The notes under the pieces are model-generated. The model was given only the letters and a program-made list of their open reading frames with translations, ran no database searches and was not told the origin of the DNA. A program made the translations under genes and the position numbers. A stretch of DNA of 64,000 nt, taken from NCBI GenBank assembly GCA_036172245.1, contig JAYWIR010000057.1:310001-374000 (forward strand), given 5' to 3'. Positions 428 to 28,633 of the stretch are shown one piece after another; positions within the stretch are counted from its first letter, which is position 1, and every line of letters begins with the position of its first letter. The DNA is from Raillietiella orientalis. Its lineage: Eukaryota.

Positions 428-3330
428 CTTAGGGATGTGGGACGGAATCCCAAATTTTCGAAACAAAAGGAAGCAAAAGATAATCTATGGGATGGAGGGC
501 AACCTTGAGAGCAGGATTGAAATTGCCAGGAGATCAGCATAAATATTTAGAATCGTAGGTGTGACAGAAACTGAGAAGATAAACAAGAATAAAATTACAC
601 AAAGTGATGCAAGCGTCCTTCGTCGCTGCAGATAACGCGTTCCGAGATGTTTAGACTTCAATTTTCAGCCACCTGAGATCATCCCCCCCTCTCTATCTGC
701 AGTTTCCTCATCCGTGAGCTTTTCCGGTTATCGCGACACTCCACGAAAATGGGAAACATTCCGTCGGTGGATGGCGGTTCATCCAATTCATCCTCCCCTT
801 TCTGCTCTTGTGCAGCTGAAGGTGGAGAGGTCCTCCTCGCCTTCGAGCGCTTCCAGCTTCCTCTGAAATCTGGCGATCTCATCGCGCTGGAGATGGCGGA
901 TACGGAGGAGGAACCGTATAAGCATGGCTTCCTCAGGGAAGGCGCCAGGGCTGGAAGTCTGCCCAACTTCCAGACAACAAGGAAACCTTTAACTTCCTCT
1001 GCCACAACTGCGACTGTCATGTTGATATCGGATGCCACACCAACGTTTCCAATTAAATAGTATTTAATTAGCAGCGCATTTGTGGCAACGTCTGTCTTCA
1101 TTACCTGTACTTTTCCCCTTCTTTATAACGTACAATGCCTGTGCCCCGGGATGCACGTCATCGTGCTGCATGTTCCCGTTGATGTACAATCAAACTGCGT
1201 TCAATTCTTAAGACATTTCTCACTTTTATTCCGTGCTTGAAAAATTGCAAAATGGCGTCCTTTTCTCTCCCCTTTCGTGAGCATTTCGCAAAGTTATTCC
1301 TGTCGCTCGAAACCGCAAGCGTAAAGCAGCCATTCTGGCGGGCGCGGAGGGGCTTTGCAGCGACCATCAAGAGGGGGCAGGAAGCCGATACCAAGCGAGA
1401 AGGCAGGCAGTCTTTCTGGAAGCGAGAGACGATGAGGACGAATGAGAATGCTGGAGGAAGAGCGTCGGAGCCCCAAAGGTTCCAACGTGCACCGGCATTC
1501 GCTTCGGCGCCGTTGTCATCAAGCAGCGACTACTCCTTCCAGCTCGTCCGGTGCCACTGGAGGACACCCAGCGTTTCCAGACCGAAAGCCTACTTGAAAA
1601 TTTCAAAGTTCCCGTCTGAGAAAGCTGTACCAAAGGAAACACAAAAGTCATCTGCGGTCATCGAATTATCGTTGATTGGGGATTCTGCCCCGGAGAACCA
1701 CCATCCTCTTTCGGTTGTTTCGCAGAGACCACGATCATCAACGGTTCTTCCTGAAAAGCGATAATCGATAAATCCTCAGCATCCTTCATCGTGATTCGTC
1801 ATTTATCATTGTCGGTGTCCACTCAGATTTCTCAAGGATGGTTATGATGTGCACGGAGATCCCAGTTCAGTGCTACGGAAGCAAAAGGAGGCGACGTAGA
1901 TGAATGGGATGGGAGGCATGAAAGATGGTCTTCTTTCATGCCGTTGCATCTTTGCAGAGGTGGGCGGATGGACTTTTTTTTTTCAGAACTGAAATGAGTG
2001 CAAGAACGTCGTTAGAGACAGGTCACCCCGATGCAGGCTAAACAACTTCTTTGTTTATAAAAACACATTCGCCAAGAAGAAGAAGAAGAAAAAAACACCA
2101 TCATCGCGTTTTGTGTGCGGCCGAGAATCCTCTCGCACCGAGATCTCACCGAGCAGGGGAGTTGCTGCCCTTGAATGGAATTTTCGCCCTTTCGCCCCGC
2201 TCCTCAGACCATCCTAGCAGTCACAAGCGCGAATCCTTCTTAAGAGTGCAAGAAAGAATATTTGTTTAGCAGACTTTCCGATGTTTACACGATCCGAGCG
2301 AACGCAGCAGTTTCCTGCGTTCGCATGTCCCTTTAAGCGCTGCAGCGTTCTGCCCAACACTTCGGAAGAGCGACTGCGTCACCTGCGTGGAGTAGCAGCC
2401 GTTTCCTTCGACCTGAGGTGTCTACGTGCACAGAACACGCGACAAGACTCCAGCTAGATGGTTTTGCAGCTCAGAGACGCATCCCTTCGCGAAGACATTC
2501 GAATGGACACGCCGTTCAGCTTTCCGCTCCGCTGGGTCCCTCGAGAGAAGGTCAAGGTTGACCACAACGTCTTGTGCTTCCACCCCCTTAGGAGTGCAGA
2601 GTTCGCTTTTGATTTCTGCCCTTTCGGCTGCTGACGTTTTCCCATCAATATAATCCGGAGTTCGGGACAAAGATCCCGAAATTGCAGCCACACATCAGTG
2701 GTCACTCGAAAATCCTTAGTGTCTTGGAATCTTTGCTTCCTCTCGCCGCTATGCGAGCTCAGGAGCCAAGTTTCCACTGAAGCTACCGTTTGCTTCTTCC
2801 GTTAGAAACAACGGGCACTATCTTTCGCCCGTCTCAAGCTAAGAAATCGATTCTTAAGAAATCATTTTTAATCCATTGGATGAGGGATCAGCCGCGATGT
2901 GAACCAACCTACAGCCAGAAGTCAGAAGGTCATGCGAAAATCAACACTGGGCAGCTCATCAGAGGACGAATCCATAACGTGCGAGCACGGGTGGCTGTAC
3001 AGAACACCCCACCAATCAGGAAGCAGTTCACCTGTTGGGACCCTCTTGTCTTCGGCAATGAAGACGAATGAATGCACTTGTACGCTTCTCACGCTGTCAC
3101 CACAATTCAGTGGTCATCGGATGCACATTGAACATTATTTTCTCTTCGCAACCACGTTTAGCTGAATTTGGTAGGGTTTTCCACCTCTGCCCCCTTTTCA
3201 AGGACCTCATTTCATCAGAAACTGGCGTCTACTTTTCGGATCACAACGCCAATAGTGAGGAAGTTTTTGCACCTCCGTCAACGTGGTTCCCGGCAAAGCA
3301 TGCTGCGTTTGGCGACGACGCGGAGAGTGC

Positions 3331-4163
3331 CACGCCCGCATTGGGGGCCGTGTGACTGCAGTCTCCGCGAGTTGCACCAAGCGTTGCGCGTTCGAGTCCC
3401 GCCCGTGGAAGGATCGACCCCGAGAAATGGGGTGCATCGTGAGCTACGAGCCCCCCCTGTCCCGCAGGATGACGGTGGCTGGCCCATGGTTTTCGGGTGT
3501 GGCGGCACTGGTGCAAGCCGGAAACTGGATGTTTCCGCTGACTGATACAGGGATTGGATGTTGACCCTCCGGGGGCCTTCCAGAGTCAAGGAGCCGGTTC
3601 CCTCCAGTTGTGAGAATGGAGCTGTACATAAAGCTGGCTGATATCCTCCCCGGGGAGTTGCTTCTCTAGAGTATAAGAAGCGTGCTGCTCCCTTCGAGAA
3701 CTGCGTCCTTCAGAAAAACTGGGGAGCGTCCCATCTGGGTTCTCTTCAGAGAAGCGTCAACAAAAAACGGTTCTCTTGCGGATTCCCTCAGGAGAAGAAA
3801 TTCCAGAAGTGGATTCTTTCCGGGAGGGGTGGCCCCCTCCAGGGGTCCCTCAGGGAGAGGATTCCCTTCGGGGTTCCCTACCAAGAGTAAGAGGAATGGA
3901 CTGCCTCCTCCGGAGCCTTCCTGGATTCATAGGTTGTCCCTTCGGGGTTCCTCCCTAACTTGAAAAGTTACACGCACCCTCTGGTGACATGGACAGTGTT
4001 AAAGAGCTTTGCGATCCCCTCCTATGGAAGCGAACGGAATCTCAGCATTCCTTGAGAACCAAAAAAAAAAAAGAAAAAACGAAAAAAAAAAAAAAAAACT
4101 GGAAGGAAAGCAGCAAAACAGAAAAGAACCTTAAAGGGATCGCTGCTGCTATTCTGGGGAGTG
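3331..4163 (+). mobile_element. Repeat A copy 1: tRNA-headed SINE-like element, interrupted near its 3' end by a LINE fragment
   Basis: B-box-like GTTCGAGTCCC at ~3390-3400. Colinear similarity with the copies at 18.3-19.2, 23-27.4, 29.7-30.5 and 63.0-63.6 kb (ggaaggatcgac.ccgagaaatggg; gggattggatgttgaccctcc; ccctaacttgaa). Internal A-tract at 4061-4098. Confidence 0.8.
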
Positions 4164-5015
4164 ATCTGCAGCATAGCAGCAAAAACAAAACTTCTGGAGG
4201 GGAGTGGACAACTCGGGAAGTAACGGACGCTGCGACCCCGAGTGTCCCACCGCACGGACTTGTATGCTTGTATTCCTCCGGAGGAGGTGAAGTGACTCTC
4301 AGCGTGCGGGAACAGCTGCACCCTCCCACTCAAGTGGCAGAACTTGGCGTTGCTGGTGGTGCATGGGGGAATCCCGTGCAAATCACGCCTTCACCACTGG
4401 ACACGGGGGAGTGTCAACGCTCAATGAGGCAGGTACGGGAAGAAGGAGACCTTCTCGCACCTATTGCTGGACTGTGACCCCTTCGGAATAGACTCGCAAC
4501 GATCCTAGGAATGTCCCGGCCAGCAGCCCCATGGACATTTTCAGACGCCTCTCCGTGCGTGCCGCTCTGCCGTCAGCCGCATCCCCCGCAGTTCTCTGCT
4601 GCGTCCGCGGATTCGTGGCAGCCTGGAACACGGGAAGAAGAGGCCAGAATGGCAGGGACGCCATCCACTGGGCGCGAATCTTACCGAGGACCGCCTCGAA
4701 ATGGCTCCACCTGGTCACTATCCGGAGAGAACTTGCCAGTATCCTAAACAGGATGCAGAGGACGCCTGGACGCGTACTGCGATCCCTTCCTCAGTCCCCC
4801 CCCTCTTCCCCGTGAAAAATTTCCTCTCCCCTGTGTTTGCGTGTTTTATTTTATTTTACTTTTCCCCCTTCCTCCACGCTGCTGAAGCGGGCCTCACGGG
4901 TCTGCATAGCGGTCCTCGGCAGGTTCGTTGCGCGTGGTTCTACCCAATGGTTCTACCACACCAATGTATTTTTGTCACTTTATTTAATAAATGCCCCGGC
5001 ATAATTGGGTGATAA
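4164..5015 (+). mobile_element. 5'-truncated, decayed L1/Tx1-clade LINE (ORF2 C-terminus and 3' UTR)
   Basis: Matches 26380-27190 (gacgctgcgaccccgagt...). Degenerate zinc-knuckle region (...HLLLDC). ORF 4531-4815 aligns with the ORF2 C-terminus of the other copies. 3' end aataaatgccccggcataattgggtgataa. Confidence 0.85.
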
Positions 5016-5070
5016 TCATTCTGGGCCAGTGGTAACGATCTTCCCGTGAGGTCTTCACTGGCCTTTTAAA
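5016..5070 (+). mobile_element. Continuation of Repeat A copy 1 after the LINE insertion
   Basis: atcattctgggccagtggtaacgatcttcccgtgaggtcttcactggccttttaaaa aligns with the reverse complement of ~23005-23062 (atcatcctaagccaatagtaatgatctttccgtaagatctccactggagttttttaaaa). Confidence 0.65.
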
Positions 5071-8000
5071 AGACACGGAGAGGAAATGCTCCAGTAACAT
5101 GGACGCTTGTGGTCCGTAAGGAATTGCTTCCAAATTTTAACATCACAAATTTTAACCAGCCGTGCATTTCTCTAACGCAGACACTGAAGAAGACACAGAA
5201 CCACGAGTGTTATGTTCTCAGAATGTCGACGCTGTGAGACAGCTCACAACAGCAACTTCCACATTTCATCCGGCACTCATGAGCAAACTACGTGACGTAT
5301 GGAATTCTGCTTCGTGAGTGCATCTGTTAGATTCCCAACCTCCCCCACCCTCCTTCTTCTTCCTGTTCTCTACGGGACGAATTTTTTAGGTGAATCGTTG
5401 GATTCCAAGTTCATATTCATCATTTGAATATCTTCAAGGGCTTCGACAGGAGAATGATTGCTGCTGCTATCCAACGCTCTGACCGCGGAGACGCTGCAGA
5501 TTTCAAGCGTCTCCCAGCAAAAGAGTCGCGTCTTCGAAAGGGGGGAGGGAAGGAAGGAAGAAACGAGCAGGCTGCAGTTATCCAAAAAAACCCCGTCTCC
5601 ATTTGCAATCAATCAGGAGAATAATCACTCAGGGAGGTATCCTATTTTTCATGCACCTTTCCTGATGTGCTTTCCACTCCTTTCGTCTCCGCTGAAAGCC
5701 TTCGATCTTTTCGGCACGACCGCAGCTCGCGCCGCCAGACGGTTCGAGCATCAGCAGCGGCTACACTTGAAGGAGGCAACCATGTTCTTCAGGCTGAGAG
5801 ATTGTTGGCTGGGCTGACTTGCCACTTTCCAGAGTCCTCGAAGAGTGCGCCATGTAAATCCAAGAGGAAAGAAGGGAATTCCTGGAGGAGCAGCTCGTGT
5901 GATTAATTTCTCGGAAGGACAAGGGTGGCATTTGCTCCGGAAACAAATCGGAACCCTGACAGTCCGCATGCTTTCGTCTGCGGCGCATTCTCAGCTGATG
6001 AGACAATTCAGCAGGGAGCGAAAGCCAAAATCCCGAATCCCTTCGTGCTTCTGAGAGCATCTTCCACGTGCCGCTTCCATCACGCGCAGTCGATCGAACG
6101 GCGCCGGTTGCGGGTGGATCAGAGTTATTGCCGCGCCATGTTGTTCGCCTCTCATCCACCCATCCAGAGCATCATTTTCTGAACCGTTTTTCATTTCCTC
6201 ACGGCTCCTGTAAAAGCTTCCTAATGCCTGAAGCGGTATCAAATCCGTCTCCGCCAGAAGGCGTCGCAGACGTGCTGCTTTCTGGGTCCTGAAATCGGAC
6301 ACTTTTTTTTTTTTTAAAGGTGTTCCTCAAGAGTTTCACCGAATATTCCCAAGTCCTTTCCTATAGGTTACCTGTGATTTATGACGCAGCAGTAAAAGAT
6401 ATCCGTGAGATTATTTCTTAAGCCCAGTTTATCCTGTGGCTCGTTAGCATGGAAACGGAACCATCAAAACAAATCATATCCGCCCGCGAATGGATTTGTG
6501 ATCTCTGGTCTCCCCAAAATTCATAAAAGCAAACTTAAAGAGCGAAAGAGCTCTACAGTTTAAAAAAAAAAAAGAAAAAGAAAAAGCTTCCCTATTTTTT
6601 CCAAACTCCTGCCTTATTTGCTTCTCGATATCGTGTGTCCGCAGCTAAGCGCAGACTTCCCCATATCCTGGCTGTTTCTCGACAGCCGTGATGATCAGCA
6701 GTTGAAATGAAATCCTCCCGGGGCGGACTTACGCACCCGAGAGCGAGAGATGGACGCAGGTCTCCCCTTTCGTCCACCAAAGAGAAGCAGGCTGCGAACC
6801 AGAGGCGGAATCCGCTGACTTCCTGAAAGGCAGGCAGCTTCCAGGGTTCTTTTAGACCGGAGTTGGGATGAGGAGTCAGTCTTACAGAGAATTCGGAAAG
6901 CCTCCGAAGCAATGATGCTCCTTAACTAGAAATCCCCTGACTATAAATAACTTCTTGCTCACAGGACTCTTACGAGAGCTCGTAGCATGCGGCACGTTTG
7001 ATCGAGCCAGACAGTGTCATGGAAACCGCCTTCCCTGATAGGGGAGTCGCTCGATTTCCGTTTCGAATCCCTCCAAAACGAGACGACCGTCGTCTCCTGA
7101 AGATGAACGAAGAGCCTAGATAACACTGAACGGCTCCGAGATGCTTTCTTCAGAAAGCGATCACTGCGCTATCAAGTAGCTCAGTACCTGCCTGACTGAG
7201 CGGAAGGTCACCTAGGCAACGCTGGCATGTTTTGTCGGACGTGTCGAGAGCCTTCTTAGCATCTGAGATGGGCGCGTATGAATGCTGCTAGCAGCTCTGT
7301 GTTCTTCCCGGAACCAGTCGGTCTTCATAAATACTGGGGCTGCAAAAAATAATCCACCCAAGCAATTAACGTGTGGAGTCTCCATGGAATCGTGAGAAAA
7401 TTTCCAGATCGTCCCAGAACGTTTGGAAAGATACAACTTGAGGCAACCATAGAAATGATGAGAACGTTCTTCAATGAATCCAGCGGAGAGAGAGAGAGAG
7501 AGAGGAAGGAAAAAAAGTGGACGTGCCAAGAGATGCAGAAAGTCCTTAGCCGAACTCTCAATGTCCTCTGCTTCGGCTTCAAGGTGGTCAACAACTGAAG
7601 TGACTTATTATTTTCTAGAAATTTCGCTGCCTGCTCGAAGTTCGCTCCCCCCCCCCCATGGGCGAATCCAACTAGGAAGTAGGTGTAGGATTAGGTGGAT
7701 TCCCACCACCGCCCCAGCAAATCGGGTCTCTTCAGCAGCCTGCCTTGCTCGCGTCTGAAGCAACAACCTCTCCCGAAGGAATGGAGCAGTGCTTATTCAG
7801 CGATGACAGGATTCTGTATACAGAACACGCAACTTGATTACGCACGACTGCATCTTCCTCCTAAGATGCTTTGACTCGCGCCTCCTGCCGAAGTACACTA
7901 ATCCGGAGCTCTATGTATTTATGGTTCCGTGTAAATACACTGAACTCGAGGCCATGAATAAATCCAAACAACTTCCACTCTTGAAACATCCCTCCTGCGC

Positions 8001-15252: not shown

Positions 15253-15929
15253 AACCTGACGACGAGGAAGAACAAGGAAAAAGTAAGCAAGAACAAGAAA
15301 AAAAGCCTGAAATTCATTGCGAACCCCAATGAAAGTGACCTAAACGAAAAAGAAAATTTTGTTTTGGAGAAACCAAATCTTTGATCGTTCATAAACCATG
15401 GATCAAATATGCTCGTGGATATCTTTGACAGGTCGAAATTTCGAGGATGATTTGCGGTGGTGGATCCACCCTCTGAAAACGTGGCTGTAGTGGCTTTCCA
15501 TGCCCGATGACCTAGCTTTTCTCTATAGCTCTCAACTCTGCCCAGGGATTTTTATCATGCTCGTTTGGTGCTTCGATCTTGCGAGTAAGCAGGTTATTCA
15601 GATGCTTGGATCTTCGCCGCAAAGCGTGGATCTCACGTTCACACGACAGAGCTCGAGGGGTGGAAAAGCCTGAAAACCGGAGGGCTCATGGGTTCAAAGA
15701 TCAAGAAATCGTTCCTCTTCTGTTTTTCTTCATTTTGGCCTAAAGTTCCTGCAGACTTCAACTTTCCTGACGACGCTCTCATTTCAACCTAGGAGCATCT
15801 AGTCGATCTCAGCGGGTCTTTAAGATCCAACTGTTCAGTTTCGGGAAGCCTAAAGGGCATTTTCAAAGCAGACTGTGGTTTTGCATTCAAGGATTTATGT
15901 AATTTTAGCTCAGCTTGTTTTTCAGTTTC

Positions 15930-16270
15930 CTCACAGAGAGCTCTTTAAGCACCGTCCACGCCACCCAAGGGTGCTCCAAGTCAGGGGGCACCCACTATAT
16001 GAATACAGGAAGGTTCTGGAGGAAGGAGTCCGTTACTCTTACTCTTGGGAGAGAACCCCTTCCTTATTCTTTCCAGAGGGGTCCAAGGGGTCAATCCGGG
16101 GAATCACTCCTTGTTTATTCTCCTGAGGGAACGCGCAAGGAATCGATCCTTGTTTCCTCCTCTGAAGGGACTCTTCCAAATCGCTCCGGAGGGGACTTTC
16201 CGAAGGGAGCAGCGTGCTTCTTGCACTCTGGAGTTGCAGCCCCTGAGGAGGTACCAACCAGCTCCATGAT
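15930..16270 (-). mobile_element. Repeat A partial copy (subrepeat region and part of the 3' region; head missing)
   Basis: tatgaatacaggaaggttctggaggaaggagtccgtt...ccaaccagctccat aligns with 18460-18900. Confidence 0.75.
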
Positions 16271-16288
16271 TTGCGATAAAGGGTCTGA

Positions 16289-16389
16289 ACGAGATTGGCT
16301 CATTCTTTGCACATGGCAAGAGACTTTGAAATTAGTCAGCCTTCAGTTTATCGAAGCAGCAGCTCAGAGGAAACAAAGTCCAAGGTCCA
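16289..16389 (+). repeat. ~100-bp direct repeat, copy 1
   Basis: acgagattggctcattctttgcacatggcaagagactttgaaattagtcagc...aaggtcca aligns with 17201-17300. Confidence 0.85.
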
Positions 16390-17200
16390 CACTTGTGGTT
16401 TCTGGTCCATTCATGATTTTCCGTTTCAGGGAGACGCCTTTTTCAGCGAGAGCGCCGAATCACGAAGTCACTTCCATTTGAGAAGAGCGATAGAAGTTGT
16501 GGGAGCTGTTGTCCCAGAATCCTCTTCCACGTGCCCGCTCCGAACGAATAGGGCACGTTTGCCCACGTCGAGAATCGATTCCCAGTCCCATGTCTGTGTT
16601 GGACACGTTCCATTTTAACTGCTGCTCTCTTTCCGAAAGCACTCGTTGTGAAACGTCCATCTCCGCAGATCTCTGTGTACCACTCCCTTTTTTTCCCTTA
16701 AATTCATCCTTGAACAAGTCGAGTGGGAGTGTCGATTTCCGTGGCATCTGAGCTGTTGCAACAGTGGAAATCCTTCATAAATTTCTGAGAGCCACCTTCG
16801 AGGATGCTTGGCTTGCACGCCTTGCCGCAAAGAGCATTCCTCTGCGTCCGTGAGGATGCGTGGACTGGAGCGGACAGTCAGCGACGCCGGGATAAACAGG
16901 CGTGCTTGTTTCACGTGATCTCAGTCTGCTTTGACATCCGGTCAGCAGGCGAACACGCGAGACACTCTCTGAGCCGAAGTCCATTTTTCGGAGGGAACTG
17001 AAAGACAGATCCCTGTACCTGAATCTGTCTGTCTTTTCTCTTTGGGAAAGCGAACGCGAGTTCGCTGGGATCAAATGCAAGCTGAATCAAAGCCGCAAGC
17101 CAAAGCCAGAAAAATTTCCCTGGTCGGGAACCTGACCAGCAGCAAAAACTCAAAGAAAAAAAACTCCAAGCGCCTTTATTTACACGCGTACCCAGTCAGG

Positions 17201-17300
17201 ACGAGCTTGGTTTATTCTTTGCACGCAGCAAGAGACTTTGAGATCAGTCAGCTGTCAGTTCACTGAAGGAGCAGCTTAGAAGAAACAAACCGAAGGTCCA
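17201..17300 (+). repeat. ~100-bp direct repeat, copy 2
   Basis: acgagcttggtttattctttgcacgcagcaagagactttgagatcagtcagc...aaggtcca aligns with 16289-16389. Confidence 0.85.
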
Positions 17301-18324
17301 TTGTATTTAAAGCTGCAAGAATTGAGGTCGAAATGAAAAGGAGAGTAATCTGCCTAAATGCTCCGAAAATCCTGCGGCTATTACTACTAACTGACACGCT
17401 GACACATCTCCTTAGGCAACTAAATGCTTCACGGTGTTTCCAAAACCCATCTTTTGTATATTTTCTGTGTTCCTCGTGTTGATATCCGAGTGATGCGATG
17501 ACTACGATGAGCGGAAGTCTCTGATATGCTCTTTGGAATGCCGAAACTGACAGTGGCGTTCAACCACAGTTTATTTAGCCTTGTTAAGGAACACGCGAAC
17601 ACGCGTATCTCAACACGAATGCCGAATAACACTGATGTCCAGGCAGACTTCGATAAACGGAACAGACAAAGGGGCGTGCAAGGATGCGTTGGAACATCAA
17701 AAGTGTGAAGAACGAATTTTCAGGCTGCGACGAGGAACGCGCGCCAAGGTGGTCCCTGCACGAAAGCAGTGCGGAGAGAACTTCCGCCTCTCCAGAGTCC
17801 CATTCCCGAGCTTATGGGTACCAGGGGTAGGTTTGGATTCTCCGTTAGGGGGAAGCTAGCTAATGAGCCCGCTCCACCACCATGCGTAGTCAAATCTATA
17901 GGGAACGTCGTTTCGATCCTGCCACCACAGCATGGCGGAAGTGTCCGTGGCACCTTCGTAAACACTAGTGAGTTCTCTTCGTTGGTTTTCGTGTCGCAGA
18001 AATCCATGCAAATTTATCCACGCACTCCCAGCTCCACGTCACTCACGGTGTCCGATGAATCTTCCACAGGCAGTCGAGTCTTCTCTCCGGGATGGGAAAA
18101 TGTTGCCGGAGTGGATTTCTATGCCCGATGACTTGGCTTCCTCTTGTAGCCCTATTGGGTTTTCATGAGAGGGCTTCGGACTTTATTGGCTTTCAGATGC
18201 CATCTTGACGGAAGTCGGAAGCACTGCTCCCAGCCGGGGCAATCGAACACCACGAGTCTGACTATACCGCTCCTGAAGACACTTTTCTCACATGAGTGTC
18301 CAGATTATTGTATTCATTTTTGGG

Positions 18325-19172
18325 GAGGCAGCTTTCCTTTCTTTTGGATTCGCCAAGTGCTGGGTAACCGTTCGCCTCCTTAGGGGGGCTCACGAAGCCG
18401 TCCACGCTCCTGAGGGTGCGTGTGACCTCTTCAAGTAAAGAAGCAACCCCGGAGAAGTCACCCTATGAATCCAGGAAGGCTCCTGAGGAAGGAATCCGTT
18501 CCTCTTGCGCTTGGCAGGGAACCTCGAAGGAAGCCTTTGCCTCGGTTCTCTCCTGAGGGAACCCTGGAGGGGGCCACTCCTCCCGGAAAGGAACTCGGAA
18601 AGGATCCACTTCTGAAGTTTCTCCCCCAGAGGGAACCCCGAAGGGAACCTCTTCCTTATTCTCTCTGGAGGGGTCCAAGGGGTTCCCTCGAGGGCACCAC
18701 TCTTTGTTTCTTCTCCGGAGGGGACCCGGAAAGGATCCTCTTCCGAATTTCTTTTGCGGAGGGCACCCGCAAGGAATCGTACCGCGCTTCCTCCTCTGAA
18801 AGGAACCCCGAAGGGACGCTTCGAACTTTCTCTGAAGGGATCTTTCTGTAGGGAGCACTCCGGAGAGGCAACTCCCGAGGGTGGTATGAACCAGCTCCAT
18901 TTTCACGACCGGAGGGGAACCCTGAAGGCTCCTTGATTCCCGGAAGGACCCCGGAGAGTCGACTTCCAATCCAGGCTAGGCAGTGGAGGCGATTGGATTC
19001 CATCAGTGCATCACAGGGAGCCTACAGACCAACCAGCGTCGTCTTGCGGTGGTACTCGGAGCCCACGACACACCCTTCATTTCTCTGGCGTCGATCCTTC
19101 CCCAGCAGGGATTCGAACCCACGACGCTTGATGCCACGCGCGGAGACTGCAGGCACACGGGTGCCAACGCAG
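18325..19172 (-). mobile_element. Repeat A near-complete copy (tRNA-headed SINE-like element)
   Basis: Minus-strand B box GGGTTCGAATCCC at 19108-19120, followed colinearly by the body, about eight subrepeats and the 3' region (cagcacttggcgaatccaaaag). Confidence 0.85.
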
Positions 19173-22100
19173 ACTCTAGATCATCATTTGAGCGATCCAG
19201 ACGCTCATCTGAGAGAAGTAGGTAGGGCCGAGGATGACTGAACTACAAGTTGTAGTGCCCTTTTAAAAGCAGTAACGTAACACGAAAGTTTTTTTTTTTT
19301 TTCCTCTCTATGCTTCAAGACCTCATCCTTGCAACGATGATGTGTTTCACCCCAAGTTCATTTCCCTCCCCTTCACTGACGCTTTCTCATTCCACCGATA
19401 CTTCTCATAGGAATTCTCATCAGCGGCATTGGGACGCGGCTGCGACGGGTGGCTCAAAGCCCGATGCGGAAACCGAACCAGCGAGCTGCTCGCATCTGTC
19501 GAATTCCAGCTTTCTATTTCGCCTCTCGATTCTGCAATTCCTTGGCCTTCCCTGGTCTTAGGGACTCTATTTGATCAAGTGGAAGTAAGGTTGAAGTGGC
19601 TATGATCGTGACGATGCCACTTCCTCATCTGTAGTTGTCTGGTCACTGAGACAACTTCCATTCCAAGTGGAAGGTGCTAAGCGCATTCATGCAGTCTTTT
19701 GGCATTCTTCTTTCCTTTTTTTTTCCAGAGGAAGGTACCATAACCGTCTTACGGCCACGCACCTATAGAGAGATGATGGCTCTCTTATTATGGCTCTGTT
19801 TCAGAGAGCTGCAGTAATCGTCAGGCCGAAATCAGAGTTGCCGTCCGCGAAGATCCGTTGCTGTGCGCTCCAGAGTTAGGAATTTCACGTTCCGAGTGAT
19901 GCCGCTTCGTGCGGAATGATTTCTCGGAAGAGTGGGGAGGGGCCGCATCCACTTCTGGGCTCAGCAGGGGGTCCCCGCTTCTCCCCAGCAGAACTCGGTC
20001 GGTTCGGAAGCAGAGCTGTAGTTCTCCGATTGAAAAGGGTCCCTACGAGCTACGTGGATCTCCAAACGGGGCACGTCTGTAAAGTGCAGACGCCGGGGTT
20101 CTCCAATTGGACAGTGAGGCTGCCACTGATGGATGAAAAACCATGCAGCTTGATGGGGATGCAAGGGAGGAACTCTTCCGAAGATGTGACCTCTCTGCCT
20201 GATGTCTCTGCCTGGGTTGAAATTCGGGCACGGAGAGGTTTCTTTCTTTCTCATCCGAGAGTTGTCGCCCACTCTGGCACTAAGGGGTGAGAATGGCTTT
20301 GTCTTTTTCGAATTCCCTCTAAAGAAGCGCTCAATTGTCTCGATGATAGCAGTCGGTGGGTCAGCATTCAACGCGGATTGACCATTCCATGAAGACCAAA
20401 GAGTCCCTTTCACTTTAAAGGTGTCCGGGAAAGAGTACCGGGAGGTACTCTTTCCCTGAGTATCCCGCATCCCCCATCCCACTCAACGACACGTGAATTG
20501 GGAGATGGATGCTGGAAAAAACCATCAAGAAGTGCTGATGGAATCGGCGGAAGAGCCTTTGATGGTGAGAAACAACGGCAGAGCCAGCCGGGCAGCGCGC
20601 AAGGTGAGAGAGCCCCGCTGCTTTTCCCACTCAGCCATCCCTCAAAAGAAAAAAAGGAAAGAAAAATGGAAGTTCTGGCATGGTAAGAGCAATCTTTCAT
20701 TGCTCATTAGGCGCCCCATTGTAGCGGAAGTCGATCCTATGCTTGGACCTGCGGGGAGCTCGCGTAGACTTCTGAGCGCTTCAAGGCTTCCGTGGGCTTC
20801 GTAGAGGGAGGTCCCGTGACAGAACCGCCAGGTATGATTTGTGTATTAGCGAGACCTGGAAGAAGGTCGCCTGCACTCCTAGGAATTTCATCCTCCGAGC
20901 CCATAATTGTGGAAGACAACCTCTCGAGCACGGGGGAAGGAGAGGGGGGGGCAGTGGCTCCATCAATCTGCTTGAACAGCAAAGAGAATTTATTGCGCGT
21001 TCCGTCCGACGAAACGTTTCCGACTTTTGCCCGGAATTCGTGGCACGTAAGCCCTCTCTCCGAGGTTTTAAACAGAATTCACCCCTGGATAGGAAGACGT
21101 CGCCTGTCGTCCTCAGCAGGGATGGTTCGTCACTCAGCAAATCCTTCGCCACCCTACTCCTCTCGAGTTCCTCAAGGTGCTCCGAGCGCTCTTCGAGGAA
21201 AGAGGGATGCATGCGAGAGTTTGATCCAGTGAGGCCATGTGTTCACGGCCGAAAGGTTCTCCAGGGAGGAATAGGGAGGAATCCAGCACGGCGTGACAGA
21301 AGGTGCATCCAGGAAGCATCTGAAAGCAACCCTCTAAGTTGAGGTTTGACGCCCGGGTCGTTGCCGCTTGCTGATCGGCGATTTCTTCTCAGAAGCGACT
21401 CGTTCCGGGATGCAAAGAATCCACAAAGATGTCAGGGTAGTTGATGGCTGCAGTTTGGAAGCACCGAGAACTCTCTCGCTTCCCTAGTTCCTCGCGTCCT
21501 TCCGCTTCTTTCCGGTTCTCGGCTACCGTGAGATCCGCAACCTCGTCTACGCGAATAGGGTCTTTCCTGGCAGGAGAAGAGGAGGTCAGAGACCTCAAGG
21601 GTCACTCGAGTTCCGGGAGACGAGACCAAAGCCTTATCGTAAGTTGCCAAGAACCGGATATCCTCTCGAGAATGTGCAGATTAAACATGTATCTCCAGAA
21701 AGATGCCATGGGAATGGAGTCTTTCTGCTCGATCGCCGTGTCCGCTCTCGTCTTGGTCCAGATGTCATCCGACAACAAGTTCCCCCTCCACAGGAAGAGA
21801 TATTTCCACGGATTCAGAAACCGCGTGGAAACTTGGAGAAAGCGGATGTTCTTCGAGGTGGAACTTGTGGATGGTAAGCTGAGTCCGGTATGTGAGTTCC
21901 GGTCAAATCCAGCCGGAACCAGCTAAACAAATCAGCTGATGATAGTGAAGGAGAAGACCGCTCAAGAGATGCTCCAAACTGCTGGACTGAATGTTGTGCA
22001 TGAAAGGAAACGCAGGATGGGAGAGGTCGCCGGACATTACGGAGAACAAGAATGAGACCACTGAATGCCTACGCTCTTTCGTACGAACGGAGAGAGAAAC

Positions 22101-23004
22101 AAAGATGAATCACTGGTACGATCCGTTTCGCAGAACACTTAAGGGCAGCTAAGATGGGAACGGTGCTGTTCTTGAACTCTTCCCCTTCGTTCGCATTTCG
22201 GGCTAACCTAGGCATGGGGCTTGCTTGGCCGCTCACCACTTGATGGCAGTGGTACCACGCGAGCCTAGCGAAGCAGCCGCACCTTGACCTTGAAAGTTTC
22301 CTGTCTTCACTTTCGGTTTTCCGCTGAAACACGTTGGTCATCCACGACCATCACGAGAGGAGTTTTACGGAAGGCGTGCCGCCGCCCTCCCCTCCCCAAA
22401 AAAAAAAAGACCATTCCGGCACTTTGGGGGCCGGGATGGTCGTTTCAACACGGATTTCTGCCGTCATCGGAGCGTGGCTACCAATGAGGAGAGGGTTTCG
22501 ACTGCAACCGTTGAGGCCTTGAAGCCACGCATGTGAGAGAGTCCTGGCAAGTCCAGCGTGCATTGAAGCCACGACGGGATTGTAGGTACGATCCTCCAAG
22601 TACTTTACGACGGGTATGGTGTCAGAGGAGATCAAGGAGGTGTATAGCAAGAAGATGAACAAGAGTAGAAGGGGGAAGAGTGGATTTCGAATCTTCAAGG
22701 ATTTTCATCTTATGGAAGAAGAAGAGATTTGAAGACTGAGCTCCAAAACGGAGAAGCAACGCTCTGCAGTGAGATTACCTCTCTCAAACTAAGTTTTTCG
22801 AGAACAAGAACGACCAATAGAGAAGCACTTTGGGGTGCCCGGGCCGGGCCGAGACAAGAAGAGGAGGCGGAAATGGTTCGAATTCTGGAAATGGTCGAGA
22901 ATTCACTGTGGAGCGGTGTGGGTTGCAGTGCTAATGGTTGCTGGAAATCAAGAAGACACACGCAGAAGCCTCTAGGGACCAACGGAGGAAGAAGAAACCC
23001 TTTT

Positions 23005-23220
23005 TTTAAAAAACTCCAGTGGAGATCTTACGGAAAGATCATTACTATTGGCTTAGGATGATGGAAAAATCCTATTGGGTTCTTCTGTTTTCGCTGCTTT
23101 CCTTCCAGCTTTTTTTTTGGTTCTCCGAGTGCTGAAGAACTGTTCGCCTCCGTTGGGGGCTTCTCTTTGACACCGTGGCACGCCATCCGAGGGTGCGTGT
23201 AATAACTCTCCAAGTTAGGG
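23005..23220 (-). mobile_element. Repeat A nested copy, 3' piece
   Basis: Minus strand ccctaacttggagagttattacacgcaccctc...cagcactcggagaaccaaaaaaaaagctggaagg matches 3954-4110. Its junction with the LINE is the TSD copy at 23205-23220. Confidence 0.8.
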
Positions 23221-24771
23221 TTTAACACCCGGTGACGCCGAGGCGTTTATTATAAAAGTAAGAAACATACGTATGTAGGGCCATCGGCCCTACATCGTCC
23301 GAAAATGTTGGGAACCTGTTGAGTAACCGGCACGCAGACCGACGAGGCTCTCCTCGGCAGAGGAGGGGAAGGGGCAAACAAAAATAAAAATAAAATAAAA
23401 ATCAATAAAAAAAACTCTAGGGGGAACAGGAAGGGATCATTGTTCGCTGGAGGACGTCCTCTGCACCCTTTCCAGGATGCTGGCAAGTTCCATCCGAGTA
23501 TGTCCCAGATGGGGTCATCTATGCCATCCGCAGGAAGCGCAGGGCGAAGCAGATGGAGTCCCTGTCGTGCCGTCCTCCTCTCGCATAGCTCCAAGCCGCC
23601 ACAATTCCACATTGGCAGCAGCAAAGAGCTCCTGGGGATGCGGCAGGCGAAAGGGCATCTCGAACGAAGAGGCGCTTCATCACGTCCCTGGGATTGTCCG
23701 TCGGTGCACCAAGGTCTGTTGCGTAACGCAACCACAGGGGACGGAAGACAACACAGTCTATGAGCAGGTGCGGGAAGGATTCCCGTTCCCTGCACTTGCA
23801 ACAGTATGGATCCACAGCCCCCTGGGTCCAGTGACCATGGCGGGCGTTGCACGGGAGACCCTAGTGCAACTGCATAAGTACCGACTCCTGCCACTTCAGG
23901 GGGAAAACCCAGTTGTTCTTTCGCTCTGGAGCCAATCGGAGTCTTCCTGTAGGATGCCCATTAGCTCAACCTAGCGCAATAGTCCTTTCGGTGGAGCACT
24001 TGGGGTCACAGAGTCCGTAAGCTAGCCCATGGTCCAAGCACCTGAGTCCTTCGTCCGAAGACCTATTTCGCAACGGACCTCCCATTTGACTGGCTGTTAA
24101 CTGCCCAGGTGCTCCCTCAGGGAGATCAGTGTCGCGGCTAAGGAAGTTCTTTGCGACCACGTGTGCGTGGGCCATCGTGCATGGGCTGCACGATGGAGTT
24201 CTATAGCGAGCGATTCTTGTAAAAGTGCAGCATTCGCCGCCGCATCTCCGGGCTCGCTTGGTTCTTCAGAGCCCATGTGCTAACGGTTCCCTGCAGCCAG
24301 GCAGTACCGTTCATGGATCGAAAGGAGATCCTGTTGTTGCTGCTGGCCAGCTTGATCACTCATTGGTGCTCCAGTCCGCAATGGGACACGTTGCATCTGC
24401 GCCGCCGCGCCAGGAACGAAGATAGTCCCACATAGCCAATGGTTCACTTGACCAGGAATCGTGAGGACTTGCACCAGTTCGTGCTCGAAAGCTTCGCCAC
24501 TAGGGCAAGTGTCCTCCACTGAAGCTGCCGCTCCAGGCGCTATAGCCTCAGGAGGCCGAGGCCTCCGTCGCGATGCGGAGCGCACAAGTTCTTCAGGCAG
24601 ATTCGGGACCTCCCTGTGCCCCAAAGGGCAATTCTCAGGAGGTCCTCCGTCCGTCTGCTTATAATGCTCGGTGGTGAGCAAACAAAAAGCAAGGGACGGA
24701 ATAGGGGGGTCACGAACGCGTTCCACACCGCAGCCCGTTCCGGCAAGAGAAACTTGCCCTCCTGGAACAAG
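23221..24771 (-). mobile_element. 5'-truncated, decayed L1/Tx1-clade LINE flanked by a 16-bp target-site duplication
   Basis: Post-RT segment FLLPERAAVWNAFV...IALWG...LCAPHRDGGLGL (24540-24770). CCHC knuckle CCKCRERESFPHLLIDC (ORF 23519-23815). 3' end aataaacgcctcggcgtcaccgggtgttaaa. TSD actctccaagttaggg (23205-23220) / actcttcaagttaggg (24772-24787). Confidence 0.9.
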
Positions 24772-25241
24772 ACTCTTCAAGTTAGGGGTATCCCGAGAGA
24801 AAAACCAGGAAGAATCCAAGAAGTTCCGGAGGAAGAAGTCCATTATTCTTACGCTTGGTAGGGACACTCTTTCTTATTCTCTCCAAGGAGTTCCCTGGAG
24901 GGGGCCGCTCCCTGTTTCTTCTTCGGAGGGAACCCGGAAAGGATCCTCTCTTGAAATTTCTTCTCCAAACGGAACTCGCAAGGGACGCTTCCCAATTTCT
25001 CTAAGGGCACTCGCCAAAAGGAGCAGCGCACTTCTCAACACTCTGGAGAGGCAAACCCGAGGGTGGTAATCAACCGGCTTCATTATACGGTTTATTTTCA
25101 CAACCGGAGAAGAATCCTAAAGGGAACCGGCTCCTTGAGCCGGATCCTTAATTTCGGGATTGGATGTTGACCCCGGAGGGCCAACATCCAGTCCCGGTCA
25201 GCCAGCGGGAGCATCTGGTTTTCAGCTTCCACCCGTGCCAC
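24772..25241 (-). mobile_element. Repeat A nested copy, middle piece
   Basis: The reverse complement aligns with ~3500-3965 (tggcac.ggt...gggactggatgttggccctccgg...tcaaggagccggttccc...ccctaacttgaa). A TSD copy bounds each end. Confidence 0.8.
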
Positions 25242-27194
25242 GCGCTCATCAACATTTCTTTCAGCGGGCAGTCGGTGCACAGCGTGCAGGTGAGACGCGG
25301 TATATGGTACGGCAGGACGACAACCTGAGTCCCCTGCTCTTTAGCACCTATTTCGAATTGGTGCTAAGAGCATACAGCGAGACTCTGGCTCTCCATACGC
25401 GGACGATCTTCTGCTGTTGCTTCCCTTGTCCACCCCGGCATGCGCACTCGACGGTTTCATTGAACTGCTCAGTCGTGGGACGGTCTGGTGGTGAACAAGG
25501 CAAAGTTGTCCATGGTTCCCGTTGGTGCGACGTGGGCAAAGCGGCCGAACTGGATCCGCCGGGGGATCCCCAAGGGCCGGTACTTAAAGTACCTGGACGT
25601 TCCGTTGGGGGACTTCTGCTCTGCAGAAGCCTGGTCCGGCCGAATTCAGAAAGCATCGCAGGCGCTCGGCCCGTTCCAAAGAGGCAGGTTTTACTTGCCG
25701 GAGCGGGACGCTGTGTGCAACACGCTTGTGGCCCTCCTCCTCCTCCCTTTGCTTTTTGTTTGCCCTCCTCCATGCGGCATTAGAAAGTGGACAAAGAACC
25801 TTCTCTGGATCGCCCTCTGGGGCGAAGAGAGGCCCCGAGTCCGCCTAGAGGACTTGTGTGCTCCGCGCCGGGCGGCGGTCTAGACTTTCTGACTCTGGAG
25901 AGAATGAAGCTGCAGCTCCAGTTTCGAATACTGGCCCTCATGGAAAAATTATGGAGCACCATCTGGTGCCAAACTGAACGTCTTCTCGTCCAGCAAGCCA
26001 ACTGCAGCGTGGGACTCGCGTCCTCCCTTGCGCACCGTCCATGCAGTCTCATCCCGCGGACTGCACCTGCGGCAGGTGGCCACGCTGGCCAGCAATAACG
26101 CATGGATCTCGTGCCACCCCTCAAACGGTAGTGCCCGGTTGCAGGAAACCGTGAGCACCTGGGCGACGATCCAGGAGCCCAGCGCGGAACAGGTGCGACG
26201 TTTCCTGTACGCGCGTAACAACAGCTGCACGCTCCGGGAGATCCTGGAAGAGATGAACAGCGCGTGGGCAAACAGAACCTCCCTCGCCGCCGCTCTGTCC
26301 TCCCTTAGGGAACACATGGGCATCAACGTCGCGGCTAGATGGGAGGTCACTGTGGAAATCTACGGAAGGAGAAGAGGACTGGGAGAGTAGACAGCGGGCC
26401 AGCTCACCGACGCTGCGACCCCGAGTACCCGACCCTGTGAACTTTTGAGCTGGGGAGTGCTACTGGGATTTCGGAAGAAGACCTGCAGTGTCCCCGGTGC
26501 ACATGACACCCGCACCATCCCCTTGAATTGGCAGGAGTTGGAATTGATGATGCTGCACTGGACCTCCCGTGCAACACCCGTCGGCATCTGTGGACACGGT
26601 GGTGTGTGAACCCAAACTGTGCAAGATATGGGGAGCGTGAATCCTTCCCTCAGCTCCTAGTGGACTGTGTTGCCCTCCAATCCCTTTGGGGATGCTTTGC
26701 CTCGACCCTTAGAGCCCCCAGTGGTAACGCCAGAGACGTTGTAAAGCACTTCTTCCTGTGCGACGCCCTCGAGCCGGCCGCACCTCTAGCAGCACTGTGC
26801 TGCCTACGCGGGACCGTAGCCACATGGAGGAACGTCAGTGGATACCAGAACGACAGGGACGCCATCGATTCTGCTGTCCTCTTCATGAGGACAGTGTCAA
26901 GATGGCCCCATCTGGGAGTCTTGAAACAGGAACTTGCCGACACCTTACAAGGATGCAGAGGACAACCTCCAGCATACAGTGATTCCTTCCCGAACCCCCC
27001 CATTTTTTGAGGGTATTTTTCGCTTTGTTTTTTTCTTTTTGTCTCCTTCCCCTGTGCTGTCGAGGCGAAGCCTGCTGACCTGCGTGTCAGATCCCTGCAG
27101 GTTCCTTTTCGTATTCACAAGTAAGGTGGAAGGATCAAACATTGTGCCACAGACATGGAGGTTTTATAAATAAACGCCCCGGCGTGACCGCGTA
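25242..27194 (+). mobile_element. 5'-truncated, decayed L1/Tx1-clade LINE (RT C-terminal half, zinc knuckle, 3' UTR) flanked by a 14-bp target-site duplication
   Basis: VRQDDNLSPLLF (~25307; degenerate RQGxxLSPLLF), YADDL at 25396-25410, VNKAK, KYLDVPLG, LW...LCAP..GGLDF, and CARYGERESFPQLLVDC, across several frameshifts. 3' end aataaacgccccggcgtgaccgcgta. TSD tccacccgtgccac (25228-25241) / tcaaccagtgccac (27195-27208). Confidence 0.92.
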
Positions 27195-27380
27195 TCAACC
27201 AGTGCCACCGCACCCGAAAACCATAGGCCAGTCACCGTCATCCAGCGGGGAGGGGAGATGTGAAACCGACGCAACACACCCATTTCTCGGCGTCGATCCT
27301 TCCCCGGGTGGGATTCGAGCCCACAGCGCTTTTTGATACACGCGGAGACCGCTCCCACACGGCCGCCAATGTGGGCGCAA
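27195..27380 (-). mobile_element. Repeat A nested copy, 5' head piece
   Basis: Minus strand gcccacattggcggccgtgtg...gggctcgaatcccacccggggaaggatcgacgccgagaaatggg...ggttttcgggtgcggtggcactggt matches 3331-3512. Confidence 0.85.
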
Positions 27381-28633
27381 GAAGCCCTTTTGAGGCATCG
27401 AAGTCTTCATTTTCCGACTCATGGGTTTCTCAGCCCTACAAGTGCAGGTGTGGTCTCCCAAGGGCCGCGTGGGTCCAGTTCTGCATCGTTCTAGTCAGTA
27501 GGGTGAACGGGCACGAAAAGGAGTAGGGAAGAGGACCGATCGGGATTTCCCTCCCAGGAATGGCAATCGGCGCGAAGATGCTTTCTTAGGGACCTTGCCT
27601 GTTTGGTCATGTGACGAGCAGAGAACTGGAAGAGCGTGTCCGAGAGGATTTCGATGCACAGATTCAGGGAGACCGCTGTGAGTCACAAATCAACCAGAAT
27701 CCAGGAGTTCTGTCTTTTTCCCTCCCTCCTCCTTCGGAGCCAAATTTCCAGGAGAGTTCGGGACCAGGAGAGAGAGCTGGCTGGTGCGCCTGTGGTATCG
27801 AAAGAAGTAGCGGAACCTGAAGGGGGAGGAATGTGACGTGATTACTGGGATGGCTGAAAGCCATTAAATACCTTGGAGCTTTATGTCTTCCGAGAGAATC
27901 GCCTCACTGCAGTAACCATGGTGAATCAAAATGGAAGCCTCGTCGTTGGAAAAGAGAAGAAAGGAGAGAGGAAAAAAACACACGCGCGCTCACGCAGGAA
28001 AAAAAAAAAAGAGAGAGAGAAAAAAAGAAAAAAAAGAAAAGAAAAGAAACGAAATTCGAGAGGGCGTGAAAACAGAAACGTTCGTGCTAACTGCCCGCTC
28101 ATCCTCCTCCTGGCAAAATGCGGAATAGAACGGACACCGTTCCCTGAGCGTCGTTATTTAGGATCGTTCGTGTTTCCTCTGCACAGAGTCCTTTTTACGA
28201 GAGGACGAGCGCACAAATCACTCAAGTGTTGCAGGAGGGCTCGCTTGATTTGAATTTCTAGCGGGGATCGAGACGCGATGCCACGGGAAAAATAGAGAGC
28301 AGCCCGCCCCCCGATCGCCTGCCTGGGGAGAATTTTCGAGACGGATCCGAAAATGAGATGCGGAGGGAACGCCGCCCGGCAAGCTGCGAATGGTGGCGGA
28401 GGCGTTCGAACGGCGGTCAGGAAGAGATCGGCAGCCAGACGATTGGGATGCCGGGAAGAATTTCGGATCCGAGTTCCAGAAAGGCGGACCCGAAAGCAGC
28501 CTCTCCGGCTGTTTGCATTCCATTTCCACTTGGGAATAATCTCGTCCAGAACGAATGCTGTTGACCCACGCCGCATGTGTGCCGCGTGATGCTCAGAAAC
28601 ACGATGGACTCAATAATCATTCTTCCATTTTAA

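Follow-up and report, generated by a model that had tools for sequence, protein, structure and literature searches.

Introduction

Several retrotransposons are tied to particular targets. Tx1L inserts into Tx1D and Mutsu into 5S rDNA, and the yeast elements Ty1 and Ty3, like TRE5 and TRE3 of Dictyostelium, insert at short, element-typical distances from tRNA genes, on the upstream or the downstream side and not inside them; for Ty3 and the TRE elements these distances from the Pol III gene are fixed. Keno, a LINE of the Tx1 clade, targets the U2 snRNA genes (PMC4640811).

Nesting of one transposable element (TE) within another has been surveyed in the human genome (Levy, Schwartz and Ast 2010, PMC2836564) and, in the part of that report drawn on here, the frequency of nesting for most TE pair types is that expected at random. 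Only 516 of the 36,478 human TE pair types were over-represented, for which the authors invoke motif density or selection, and the "4-fold" figure given there means that over-represented pair types are four times as many as under-represented ones, and not a general nesting bias (PMC2836564). The same part of the report places the insertion hotspots of the L1/Alu pair in the A-rich parts of Alu, which are favoured by the L1 endonuclease (PMC2836564).

Here we describe a window of 64 kb (the whole stretch of DNA that was analysed) in which three of the four copies of a LINE family lie within a dispersed repeat, Repeat A. A previous sequence-only reading had raised two explanations for this pattern, element-level targeting and selective retention in harmless sites. 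Our analysis indicates that these are probably three ordinary nested insertions of one LINE family into older Repeat A, the excess having arisen without a dedicated targeting device. As in human TE-in-TE nesting, to the extent that the part of the survey used here describes it, younger, 5'-truncated LINEs flanked by target site duplications (TSDs) sit inside an older retroposon at varied positions and in varied orientations, with the host TSDs preserved (PMC2836564). Set against that part of the survey, the locus has no structural difference, and its only oddity is that three of four hits fall in one family within one 64-kb window (PMC2836564).

Results

Copy c1 of Repeat A spans positions 3328-5071 of the plus strand, with a start at about 3331/3333 by homology, and is interrupted by the 5'-truncated 3' fragment of a LINE at 4164-5017. 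In its left part (3328-4163), delimited by nhmmer and profile matches and by alignment of the head, the head includes the B-box-like sequence GCGTTCGAGTCC (3388-3399), the motif TCCCTTCGGGGTTCC recurs in the body, and an expanded A-run occupies 4057-4099. The inserted fragment is bounded on the plus strand by a degenerate TSD of 13/14 bp, ATTCTGGGGAGTG at 4151-4163 and ATTCTGGGCCAGTG at 5018-5031; both copies are where the sequence-only reading had placed them, and its claim that Repeat A homology resumes after the LINE was also confirmed. The 3' tail of c1 (5032-5071, plus strand, last letters TTTTAAAA) belongs to a segment, 5014-5071, that aligns at about 80% identity (nhmmer E 1.4e-4) with 23063-23004 of the minus strand, the contiguous, uninterrupted tail of a second copy, c23. 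By pairwise alignment this tail was absent from the four other Repeat A copies and clear only in c23; the profile aligned one of those four, c19, through to the end of Repeat A, but c19 was among the sequences from which the profile was built. On the outside, the entire composite is flanked by GACGCGGAGAG at 3317-3327 and GACACGGAGAG at 5072-5082 (plus strand), which differ by 1 mismatch in 11; duplications of at least 11 nt with at most one mismatch occurred in 0.15% of 2000 random pairs of 25-nt windows. Since this outer duplication is the TSD of Repeat A itself and brackets the whole composite, the LINE entered a pre-existing element.

Homology of the inserted fragment, copy L1, to the other LINE copies in the window extends over 4196-5017 of the plus strand (nhmmer to copies L2, L3 and L4, E 1e-59 to 1e-70; also supported by translation and alignment). 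It contains the decayed C-terminus of ORF2, with a zinc-knuckle remnant, ETFSHLLLDC, translated from 4427-4456, and a T-rich 3' UTR that terminates in AATAAATGCCCCGGCATAATTGGGTGATAATC without a long poly(A). Between the 5' TSD and position 4196, approximately where nhmmer homology to L2 and L3 begins, lies a 32-nt filler (4164-4195, plus strand) that differs from both of these copies at the corresponding place. Read by eye, positions 4173-4181 of the filler are a 9-nt inverted copy of the target at 4144-4152; an exact-match check on 4143-4151 found none.

The second host, c23, is a full-length Repeat A copy on the minus strand (23004-27378, nhmmer and profile), split by two LINE copies, L3 and L2, into three pieces, 27378-27207, 25239-24772 and 23204-23004. 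Its outer TSD consists of AAAGGGCTTCTT at 27379-27390 and AAAGGGTTTCTT at 22992-23003. Copy L2 (23221-24771, minus strand, 1.55 kb) has the orientation of its host and is flanked by CCCTAACTTGAAGAGT at 24772-24787 and CCCTAACTTGGAGAGT at 23205-23220. Copy L3 (25240-27197, plus strand, 1.96 kb) is antisense to its host, begins 5' of the YADD box, inside the reverse-transcriptase (RT) domain, and is flanked by ACCCGTGCC at 25231-25239 and ACCAGTGCC at 27198-27206.

Each of the three fragments thus lies between separate duplicated stretches of Repeat A (13/14, 16 and 9 bp), and all of them retain the 3' end of the family while differing in the point of 5' truncation; TSDs of variable length and 5' truncation are as expected of L1-group LINEs. 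Both host copies keep their outer TSDs, which places the host before the LINE in each case. The most likely account is target-primed reverse transcription in three separate events, each leaving a 5'-truncated copy of an L1/Tx1-group LINE in a full-length Repeat A. That copies L1 and L2 are oriented like their hosts would also fit hits that were not independent, that is, chimeras formed by template switching of the RT or segmental duplicates of a single event. We consider this extremely unlikely, as Repeat A flanks every inserted fragment on both sides with the target duplicated each time, the fragments occupy three different positions in the element with L3 antisense to its host, and the outer TSDs differ between the two host copies; the three distinct LINE TSD pairs contradict it as well.

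Repeat A occupies six loci in the window, as determined by nhmmer and profile searches, and four of the six carry no LINE: c16 (15911-16299, minus strand, 5'-truncated), c19 (18202-19173, minus strand, with an internal duplication near 18675-18794), c29 (29741-30515, plus strand) and c62 (62980-63549, plus strand). A profile search of the window revealed no additional Repeat A. The LINE family has four copies of 0.56-1.96 kb, whose 3' end is common to all (nhmmer); the fourth, L4 (48121-48678, plus strand, 0.56 kb), lies outside Repeat A, and a TSD was looked for around it and not found. A tblastn search with 121 L1-group proteins yielded no further LINE remnants in the window, its matches being to L2 and L3 only. 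The count of three LINE copies out of four within Repeat A is therefore correct by both nhmmer and the TSD junctions. A homologous tail common to Repeat A and the LINE was not found. The two LINE-bearing copies, c1 and c23, are the two Repeat A copies with clear outer TSDs and a clear 3' tail.

With respect to the LINE itself, its close relative P0001 is 61% identical to an ORF of L3, and residues 420-615 of P0001 match L2 at 56% identity (tblastn). P0001 matches RVT_1 of Pfam at 4.7e-24, human L1 ORF2p at an E of about 1e-39 and R2 at 1e-17. Translation of L3 shows decayed RT motifs, RQ.D.LSPLLF and YADD, and the zinc knuckle CX2CX7HX4C is complete in the translation of L2, as CCKC...H...C, and decayed in L1 and L3; the Pfam match of the LINE regions to zf-RVT was weak (E 0.1), with nothing else above noise in the 64 ORFs scanned. 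Distant relatives at about 30% identity, whose names are automatic annotations, combine APE endonuclease, RT and zf-RVT domains, and among those listed PF03372 is present in most and PF13966 in many. The N-terminal endonuclease part is missing from all four window copies and from P0001. The L1-type RT matches of P0001 and the domains of these relatives support the earlier assignment of the family to the L1/Tx1 group, a group taken here as a whole, with the L1 and Tx1 clades left undivided.

The family is apparently an undescribed one of the L1 group. A protein atlas search returned only generic RT clusters, and a degenerate 33-nt pattern of the LINE, which fits three of the four window copies, had 0 matches in the metagenomes scanned. 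With P0001 as the query, 7 metagenome loci were confirmed out of 72 candidate stretches, all of them only distant RTs (22-35% identity, with one stretch of 28 residues at 61%). Scans of genome contigs with the LINE pattern and with a pattern of the Repeat A head gave 0 matches each.

Repeat A is non-coding and dispersed, and its two full copies are flanked by TSDs of 11 and 12 bp and end in TTTTAAAA(A)n. In its consensus a B-box-like motif, GGTTCGAATCC, lies about 55-65 nt from the 5' end, at about positions 56-66, and short G+C-rich palindromic motifs are abundant. By eye, the head has no convincing A box. ARAGORN found 0 tRNA genes in the window and 0 in the Repeat A consensus at normal thresholds; at very low thresholds it made only spurious calls, located elsewhere in the consensus than the head. 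An Rfam search of 3250-3650 gave 0 matches at the gathering threshold; beyond it there were just two, neither to a tRNA and both at the level of chance (E 4 and 9). The one scanned ORF that overlaps Repeat A (3959-4474) had no Pfam match. Thus, the proposal that Repeat A is a tRNA-derived SINE is favoured by the B-box-like motif, the TSDs and the short A tail, whereas the lack of a tRNA by ARAGORN and Rfam and a length of about 0.88 kb, long for a SINE, speak against the tRNA-derived part. From these features, Repeat A is best regarded as an older, non-autonomous, TSD-flanked retroposon that is SINE-like.

Discussion

Along the length of Repeat A, the three LINE insertions have relative positions of about 0.2, 0.7 and 0.95, two in sense and one in antisense, and their TSDs and nick-site flanks have no motif in common. 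All three points of the earlier description, namely different positions, both orientations and no common target motif, hold at the level of junctions and TSDs. The likeness to the target-specific LINEs of the Tx1 clade consists in an APE-type LINE of the L1/Tx1 group tied to a multicopy repeat, the endonuclease being predicted here from relatives. Those LINEs, however, use one exact nucleotide in a fixed orientation, in contrast to the three positions, both orientations and absence of a common motif found here. As the insertions share neither site, motif, orientation nor hairpin context, this is not a site specificity of the Tx1 style. A site-specific LINE was accordingly rejected as a candidate, given three positions, both orientations and one copy, L4, outside Repeat A.

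A looser dependence on DNA sequence would be that Repeat A is rich in a motif or DNA shape, such as palindromes or hairpin loops, that is nicked by the putative APE-type endonuclease of the LINE. The abundance of short G+C-rich palindromic motifs in Repeat A agrees with this, as does the L3 site, which is located in the loop between the arms of a perfect inverted repeat of 8 bp, a context present at 1.4-2.4% of random sites; comparable hotspots of human nesting are documented in the part of the human survey used here (PMC2836564). The other two sites, however, have inverted repeats of only 5 bp, and 67-74% of random positions have one of at least 5 bp. The folding energies at the three sites (-8.4, -8.9 and -12.7) are ordinary for the window, whose mean is -9.7 (sd 4.0), and no motif is common to the three nick sites, so that we regard an endonuclease preference as very unlikely. 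Targeting of hairpins or inverted repeats was itself rejected as a candidate, since the three inverted repeats (5, 5 and 8 bp) belong to the common class of at least 5 bp and the folding energies are ordinary. The L1/Alu hotspots, as presented in the part of the report used here, offer a comparison in which LINE machinery uses preferred sites within a SINE (PMC2836564), but none of the insertions here is in the A-rich stretch of Repeat A. In c1 no site falls within the A-rich stretch at 4057-4099, the nearest, that of L1, being about 50 bp downstream.

Repeat A covers 4423 of the 59,040 non-LINE bases of the window (7.5%), in agreement with the earlier tally of about 4.3 kb (about 7%), and under a uniform null the probability of at least three hits in four is 1.6e-3, which reproduces the naive binomial estimate of about 1e-3. 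This value becomes 0.016 when the two hits in the same copy count once, 0.048 under a generic 4-fold bias toward repeats (a null that is a sensitivity analysis, without a basis in the literature) and 0.072 if it is taken as given that L2 and L3 landed in the 15.9-30.5 kb island, where Repeat A makes up 27% of the sequence. The enrichment is therefore nominal, and small, realistic deviations from the uniform null already bring the value to 0.016-0.07; it comes from four events in a single 64-kb window, in a pattern chosen post hoc. Two of the three hits share one Repeat A copy, c23, within the 15-kb repeat island.

The same numbers are the main argument for an integration preference at the level of the element, by which the LINE would be attracted to loci of Repeat A with no need to recognise a particular sequence. 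This could come about through chromatin bound by Pol III/TFIIIC, transcription of intact copies, or nucleosome or chromatin features of the repeat. The share of three LINE copies out of four in a repeat that makes up 7.5% of the sequence (nominal P 1.6e-3), the confinement of the hits to the two Repeat A copies with clear outer TSDs and a 3' tail, and the B-box-like motif GGTTCGAATCC in the head are consistent with such a preference, and the Tx1 clade has known target-specific lineages, at least in the part of the source used (PMC4640811). Nevertheless, there are just four events, considered post hoc, with two sharing a single copy in a repeat island; four of the six Repeat A copies are free of LINE; ARAGORN and Rfam detect no tRNA, and the use of Pol III by Repeat A is hypothetical. 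The B-box-like motif makes a Pol III link of the kind known for yeast Ty1/Ty3 and Dictyostelium TRE5/TRE3 conceivable, but the sites here are within the repeat, about 110, 550 and 770 bp downstream of the motif and in mixed orientations, and Pol III use is putative. Measured from the B-box-like motif, the insertions have no fixed short distance of the Ty3/TRE type. The targeting proposed in the sequence-only reading is not established, in view of the four post hoc events, the clustering in the island, P values of 0.016-0.07 and the variable B-box distances, and we judge an element-level preference to be unlikely. A narrower form, in which the LINE prefers whole, intact, Pol III-type SINE-like copies at any position and in any orientation, guided by the state of chromatin or transcription, seems to us rather improbable.

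Ordinary nesting is thus the reading that we favour. The excess in Repeat A probably reflects small-sample chance after post hoc selection, together with the usual landing and survival of insertions in repeat-rich, unconstrained DNA. Retention in harmless sites, the second of the earlier explanations, is adopted in this form, although it requires constraint in the rest of the window, and this was not demonstrable: Pfam detected no domain in 138 ORFs of at least 90 aa outside repeats between 1 and 45.5 kb. A Pfam scan of 15 long ORFs also gave nothing. Two observations sit uneasily with ordinary nesting. Three of four hits at 7.5% coverage are nominally unlikely (1.6e-3 under the simplest null), and LINEs occur only in the two copies with clear outer TSDs and a tail, which targeting of intact or active copies also predicts.

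On the present evidence, the locus is a clean and unsurprising example of nested retroposition, in which the junctions of the nested fragments and both layers of TSDs were recovered, and it is of use for repeat annotation and for the relative dating of activity (Repeat A before the LINE). If the preference were real, this would be a rare LINE that selects its host element independently of any fixed sequence. Such a preference for a whole element would amount to a safe-haven strategy, intermediate between the random insertion of L1 and the strict site specificity of the Tx1 and R1 lineages. It would have implications for the way in which retrotransposons reach sites where they do no harm, and could be of use for targeted integration.

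Finally, one sequencing run, X1, contains 5% of the sampled words, and no RNA run is among those listed as containing them. A search of X1 with positions 2800-5600 at 80% likeness recovered 77 short contigs, of which 12 were 90-95% identical and 65 less than 90%. Two joints were seen, both within Repeat A; joints between the LINE and Repeat A were not observed, the listed pieces of about 150-250 nt being too short to test for them. The contigs cover only the Repeat A and LINE parts, with zero depth on both unique flanks, which implies that the run contains multiple copies of both families.

Nesting of LINE copies in Repeat A

The nesting of LINE copies within the SINE-like Repeat A was confirmed and its junctions were fully resolved. 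In copy c1 of this repeat (plus strand, 3331-4163 with a tail after 5018), the LINE copy L1 (4164-5017, plus strand) is flanked by the target-site duplication (TSD) noticed in the sequence-only reading, ATTCTGGGGAGTG at 4151-4163 and ATTCTGGGCCAGTG at 5018-5031. Repeat A homology resumes past L1, as had been proposed: 5014-5071 is about 80% identical to the tail of copy c23, which no insertion interrupts (23063-23004, minus strand; nhmmer E 1.4e-4). An outer TSD, GACGCGGAGAG at 3317-3327 and GACACGGAGAG at 5072-5082, brackets the entire c1 composite; therefore, L1 entered a Repeat A element already in place. The chance level of such duplications was taken from 2000 random pairs of 25-nt windows, of which, allowing one mismatch at most, 0.15% gave a match of at least 11 nt and 2.3% one of at least 9 nt. 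At the L1 5' junction, 32 nt (within 4144-4195) match no part of Repeat A or of the remaining LINE copies, and 4173-4181, among them, are a 9-nt inverted copy of the target 4144-4152; this stretch resembles snap-back or filler sequence left by 5' end joining.

Two further insertions, L2 (24771-23221, minus strand) and L3 (25240-27197, plus strand), share c23, one minus-strand copy in three pieces (27378-27207, 25239-24772 and 23204-23004) with its own outer TSD (AAAGGGCTTCTT / AAAGGGTTTCTT at 27379-27390 / 22992-23003). Their 5' ends face each other over 468 bp of Repeat A, L2 being sense and L3 antisense relative to the host. Because each carries its own TSD, of 16 bp for L2 (CCCTAACTTGAAGAGT / CCCTAACTTGGAGAGT) and 9 bp for L3 (ACCCGTGCC / ACCAGTGCC), they were separate events, and a twin-primed or chimeric product is ruled out. 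The fourth copy, L4 (48121-48678, plus strand), lies outside Repeat A, and no TSD was found at its flanks. By an ordinary target-primed mechanism, truncated copies of the L1-group LINE were inserted into the older retroposon Repeat A. About 600 bp beyond the c23 5' end, a microsatellite, (GAAAA)n, runs for about 12 units (27998-28054).

Identity of the two families

Self-comparison of the window revealed two interspersed repeat families, Repeat A and the LINE, and neither this comparison nor the profile detected any sequence common to both. Single-sequence nhmmer and a profile of all copies identified six Repeat A loci, the remaining four being c16 (16299-15911, minus), c19 (19173-18202, minus), c29 (29741-30515, plus) and c62 (62980-63549, plus); the profile gave no further copy in the window at E<=1. 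At about 0.88 kb, Repeat A is a retroposon flanked by TSDs and terminating in TTTTAAAA(A)n, with a 3' tail that pairwise alignment detected clearly only in c1 and c23 and in none of the four others. The head of its consensus holds GGTTCGAATCC, a perfect B-box-like sequence about 56-66 nt in from the 5' end; no convincing A box was seen there, and ARAGORN and Rfam recognised no tRNA in Repeat A; at curated thresholds the window as a whole yielded neither a tRNA nor an Rfam family. The label "SINE-like retroposon" is justified, and that of a tRNA-derived SINE transcribed by Pol III goes beyond these results.

The motif TCCCTTCGGGGTTCC recurs in the Repeat A body (at 3729, 3863 and 3937 in c1), and an internal A-rich stretch is lengthened to about 40 nt in c1. 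The profile matched copy c19 twice, over stretches that overlap (profile positions 3-529 and 350-825; window 18675-18794), which implies that roughly 120-180 bp are duplicated in tandem inside it. Some contigs of the sequencing run X1 have joints skipping 128 and 150 nt within the body (3574-3955). The body seems to be built from repeated units, their number differing among copies. A 107-bp direct repeat of 80% identity (16283-16389 and 17195-17300) is neither Repeat A nor LINE.

The four LINE copies have a common 3' end (...AATAAAYGCCCCGGCRT...GGGTG.TAA, lacking a long poly(A)) and different 5' truncation points. A tblastn search of 121 L1-group proteins against the window found coding remnants in L2 and L3 only. 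Decayed reverse transcriptase (RT) motifs are visible in translations of the LINE, as is a CX2CX7HX4C knuckle at the C-terminus. P0001, a 619-aa relative with an RVT_1 domain encoded on a 2.9-kb public contig, shares 61% identity with a 139-aa ORF of L3; P0001 matches human L1 ORF2p at E ~1e-39 versus only ~1e-17 for R2 proteins, and in most of its more distant relatives (~30% identity) RT is accompanied by an APE-type endonuclease and zf-RVT. Because of these translations, matches and domain make-up, the family is assigned to the L1 group (L1/Tx1-like).

Site preference

Repeat A covers 4423 of the 59040 non-LINE bases (7.5%), and under a uniform null at least three of four LINE copies would fall in it with P = 1.6e-3, in agreement with the order of 1e-3 first estimated, for a pattern picked post hoc from one window in a very large scan. 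Merging the two hits in c23 (2/3) gave P = 0.016, and a generic preference for repeat DNA gave 0.010 (2-fold), 0.048 (4-fold) and 0.11 (6-fold). Within the island at 15.9-30.5 kb, which is 27% Repeat A, the probability that both insertions lie in Repeat A is 0.072. In the human nesting figures of Levy et al. (PMC2836564), most transposable element pair types occur at random expectation, 516 of 36,478 being over-represented and 116 under-represented, deviations ascribed to integration-motif density or selection; by these figures, pair-specific excesses are known and usually mundane. We consider it probable that the excess in Repeat A reflects chance plus regional or retention bias.

A real element-level preference of the LINE for Repeat A would be interesting, but the anatomy of the sites gives no pointer toward it and we regard it as unlikely. 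As originally described, the three sites differ in position, occur in both orientations and have no motif in common; they lie at ~0.2, 0.7 and 0.95 of Repeat A, and neither their TSDs nor their nick-site flanks share a motif. Such scatter is unlike the behaviour of Ty3 and TRE elements, which integrate at fixed distances. Site-specific Tx1 and R1 lineages, as characterized in PMC4640811, are defined by a single insertion position, whereas three are used here. Hairpin-loop targeting was rejected: the L3 site lies within a perfect 8-bp inverted repeat (found at 1.4-2.4% of random sites), but the L1 and L2 sites have inverted repeats of only 5 bp (at least 5 bp at 67-74% of random sites), and folding energies at all three are ordinary.

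Sequences beyond the window and other features

X1 was the only run sharing words with the window, and its 77 short contigs, placed at 80-95% identity, were confined to Repeat A and the LINE, with none on the unique flanks 2800-3363 and 5056-5600. Both families are thus multicopy elsewhere; none of the 77 joins LINE to Repeat A, and these contigs are uninformative on junction partners. The run probably derives from a relative or else covers the same organism very thinly. A metagenome scan with the LINE pattern gave no matches and one with P0001 only distant RTs, and two scans of the genome collection found nothing.

The window is eukaryotic in character (CpG observed/expected 0.88, TpA 0.44, G+C 51%). 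Both strands of a G+C-rich block (~60%) at 56000-60800 contain many overlapping long ORFs; the longest (497 aa, 57726-59216) has a low-complexity, R/P/S/A-rich translation with no Pfam match and is probably non-coding.
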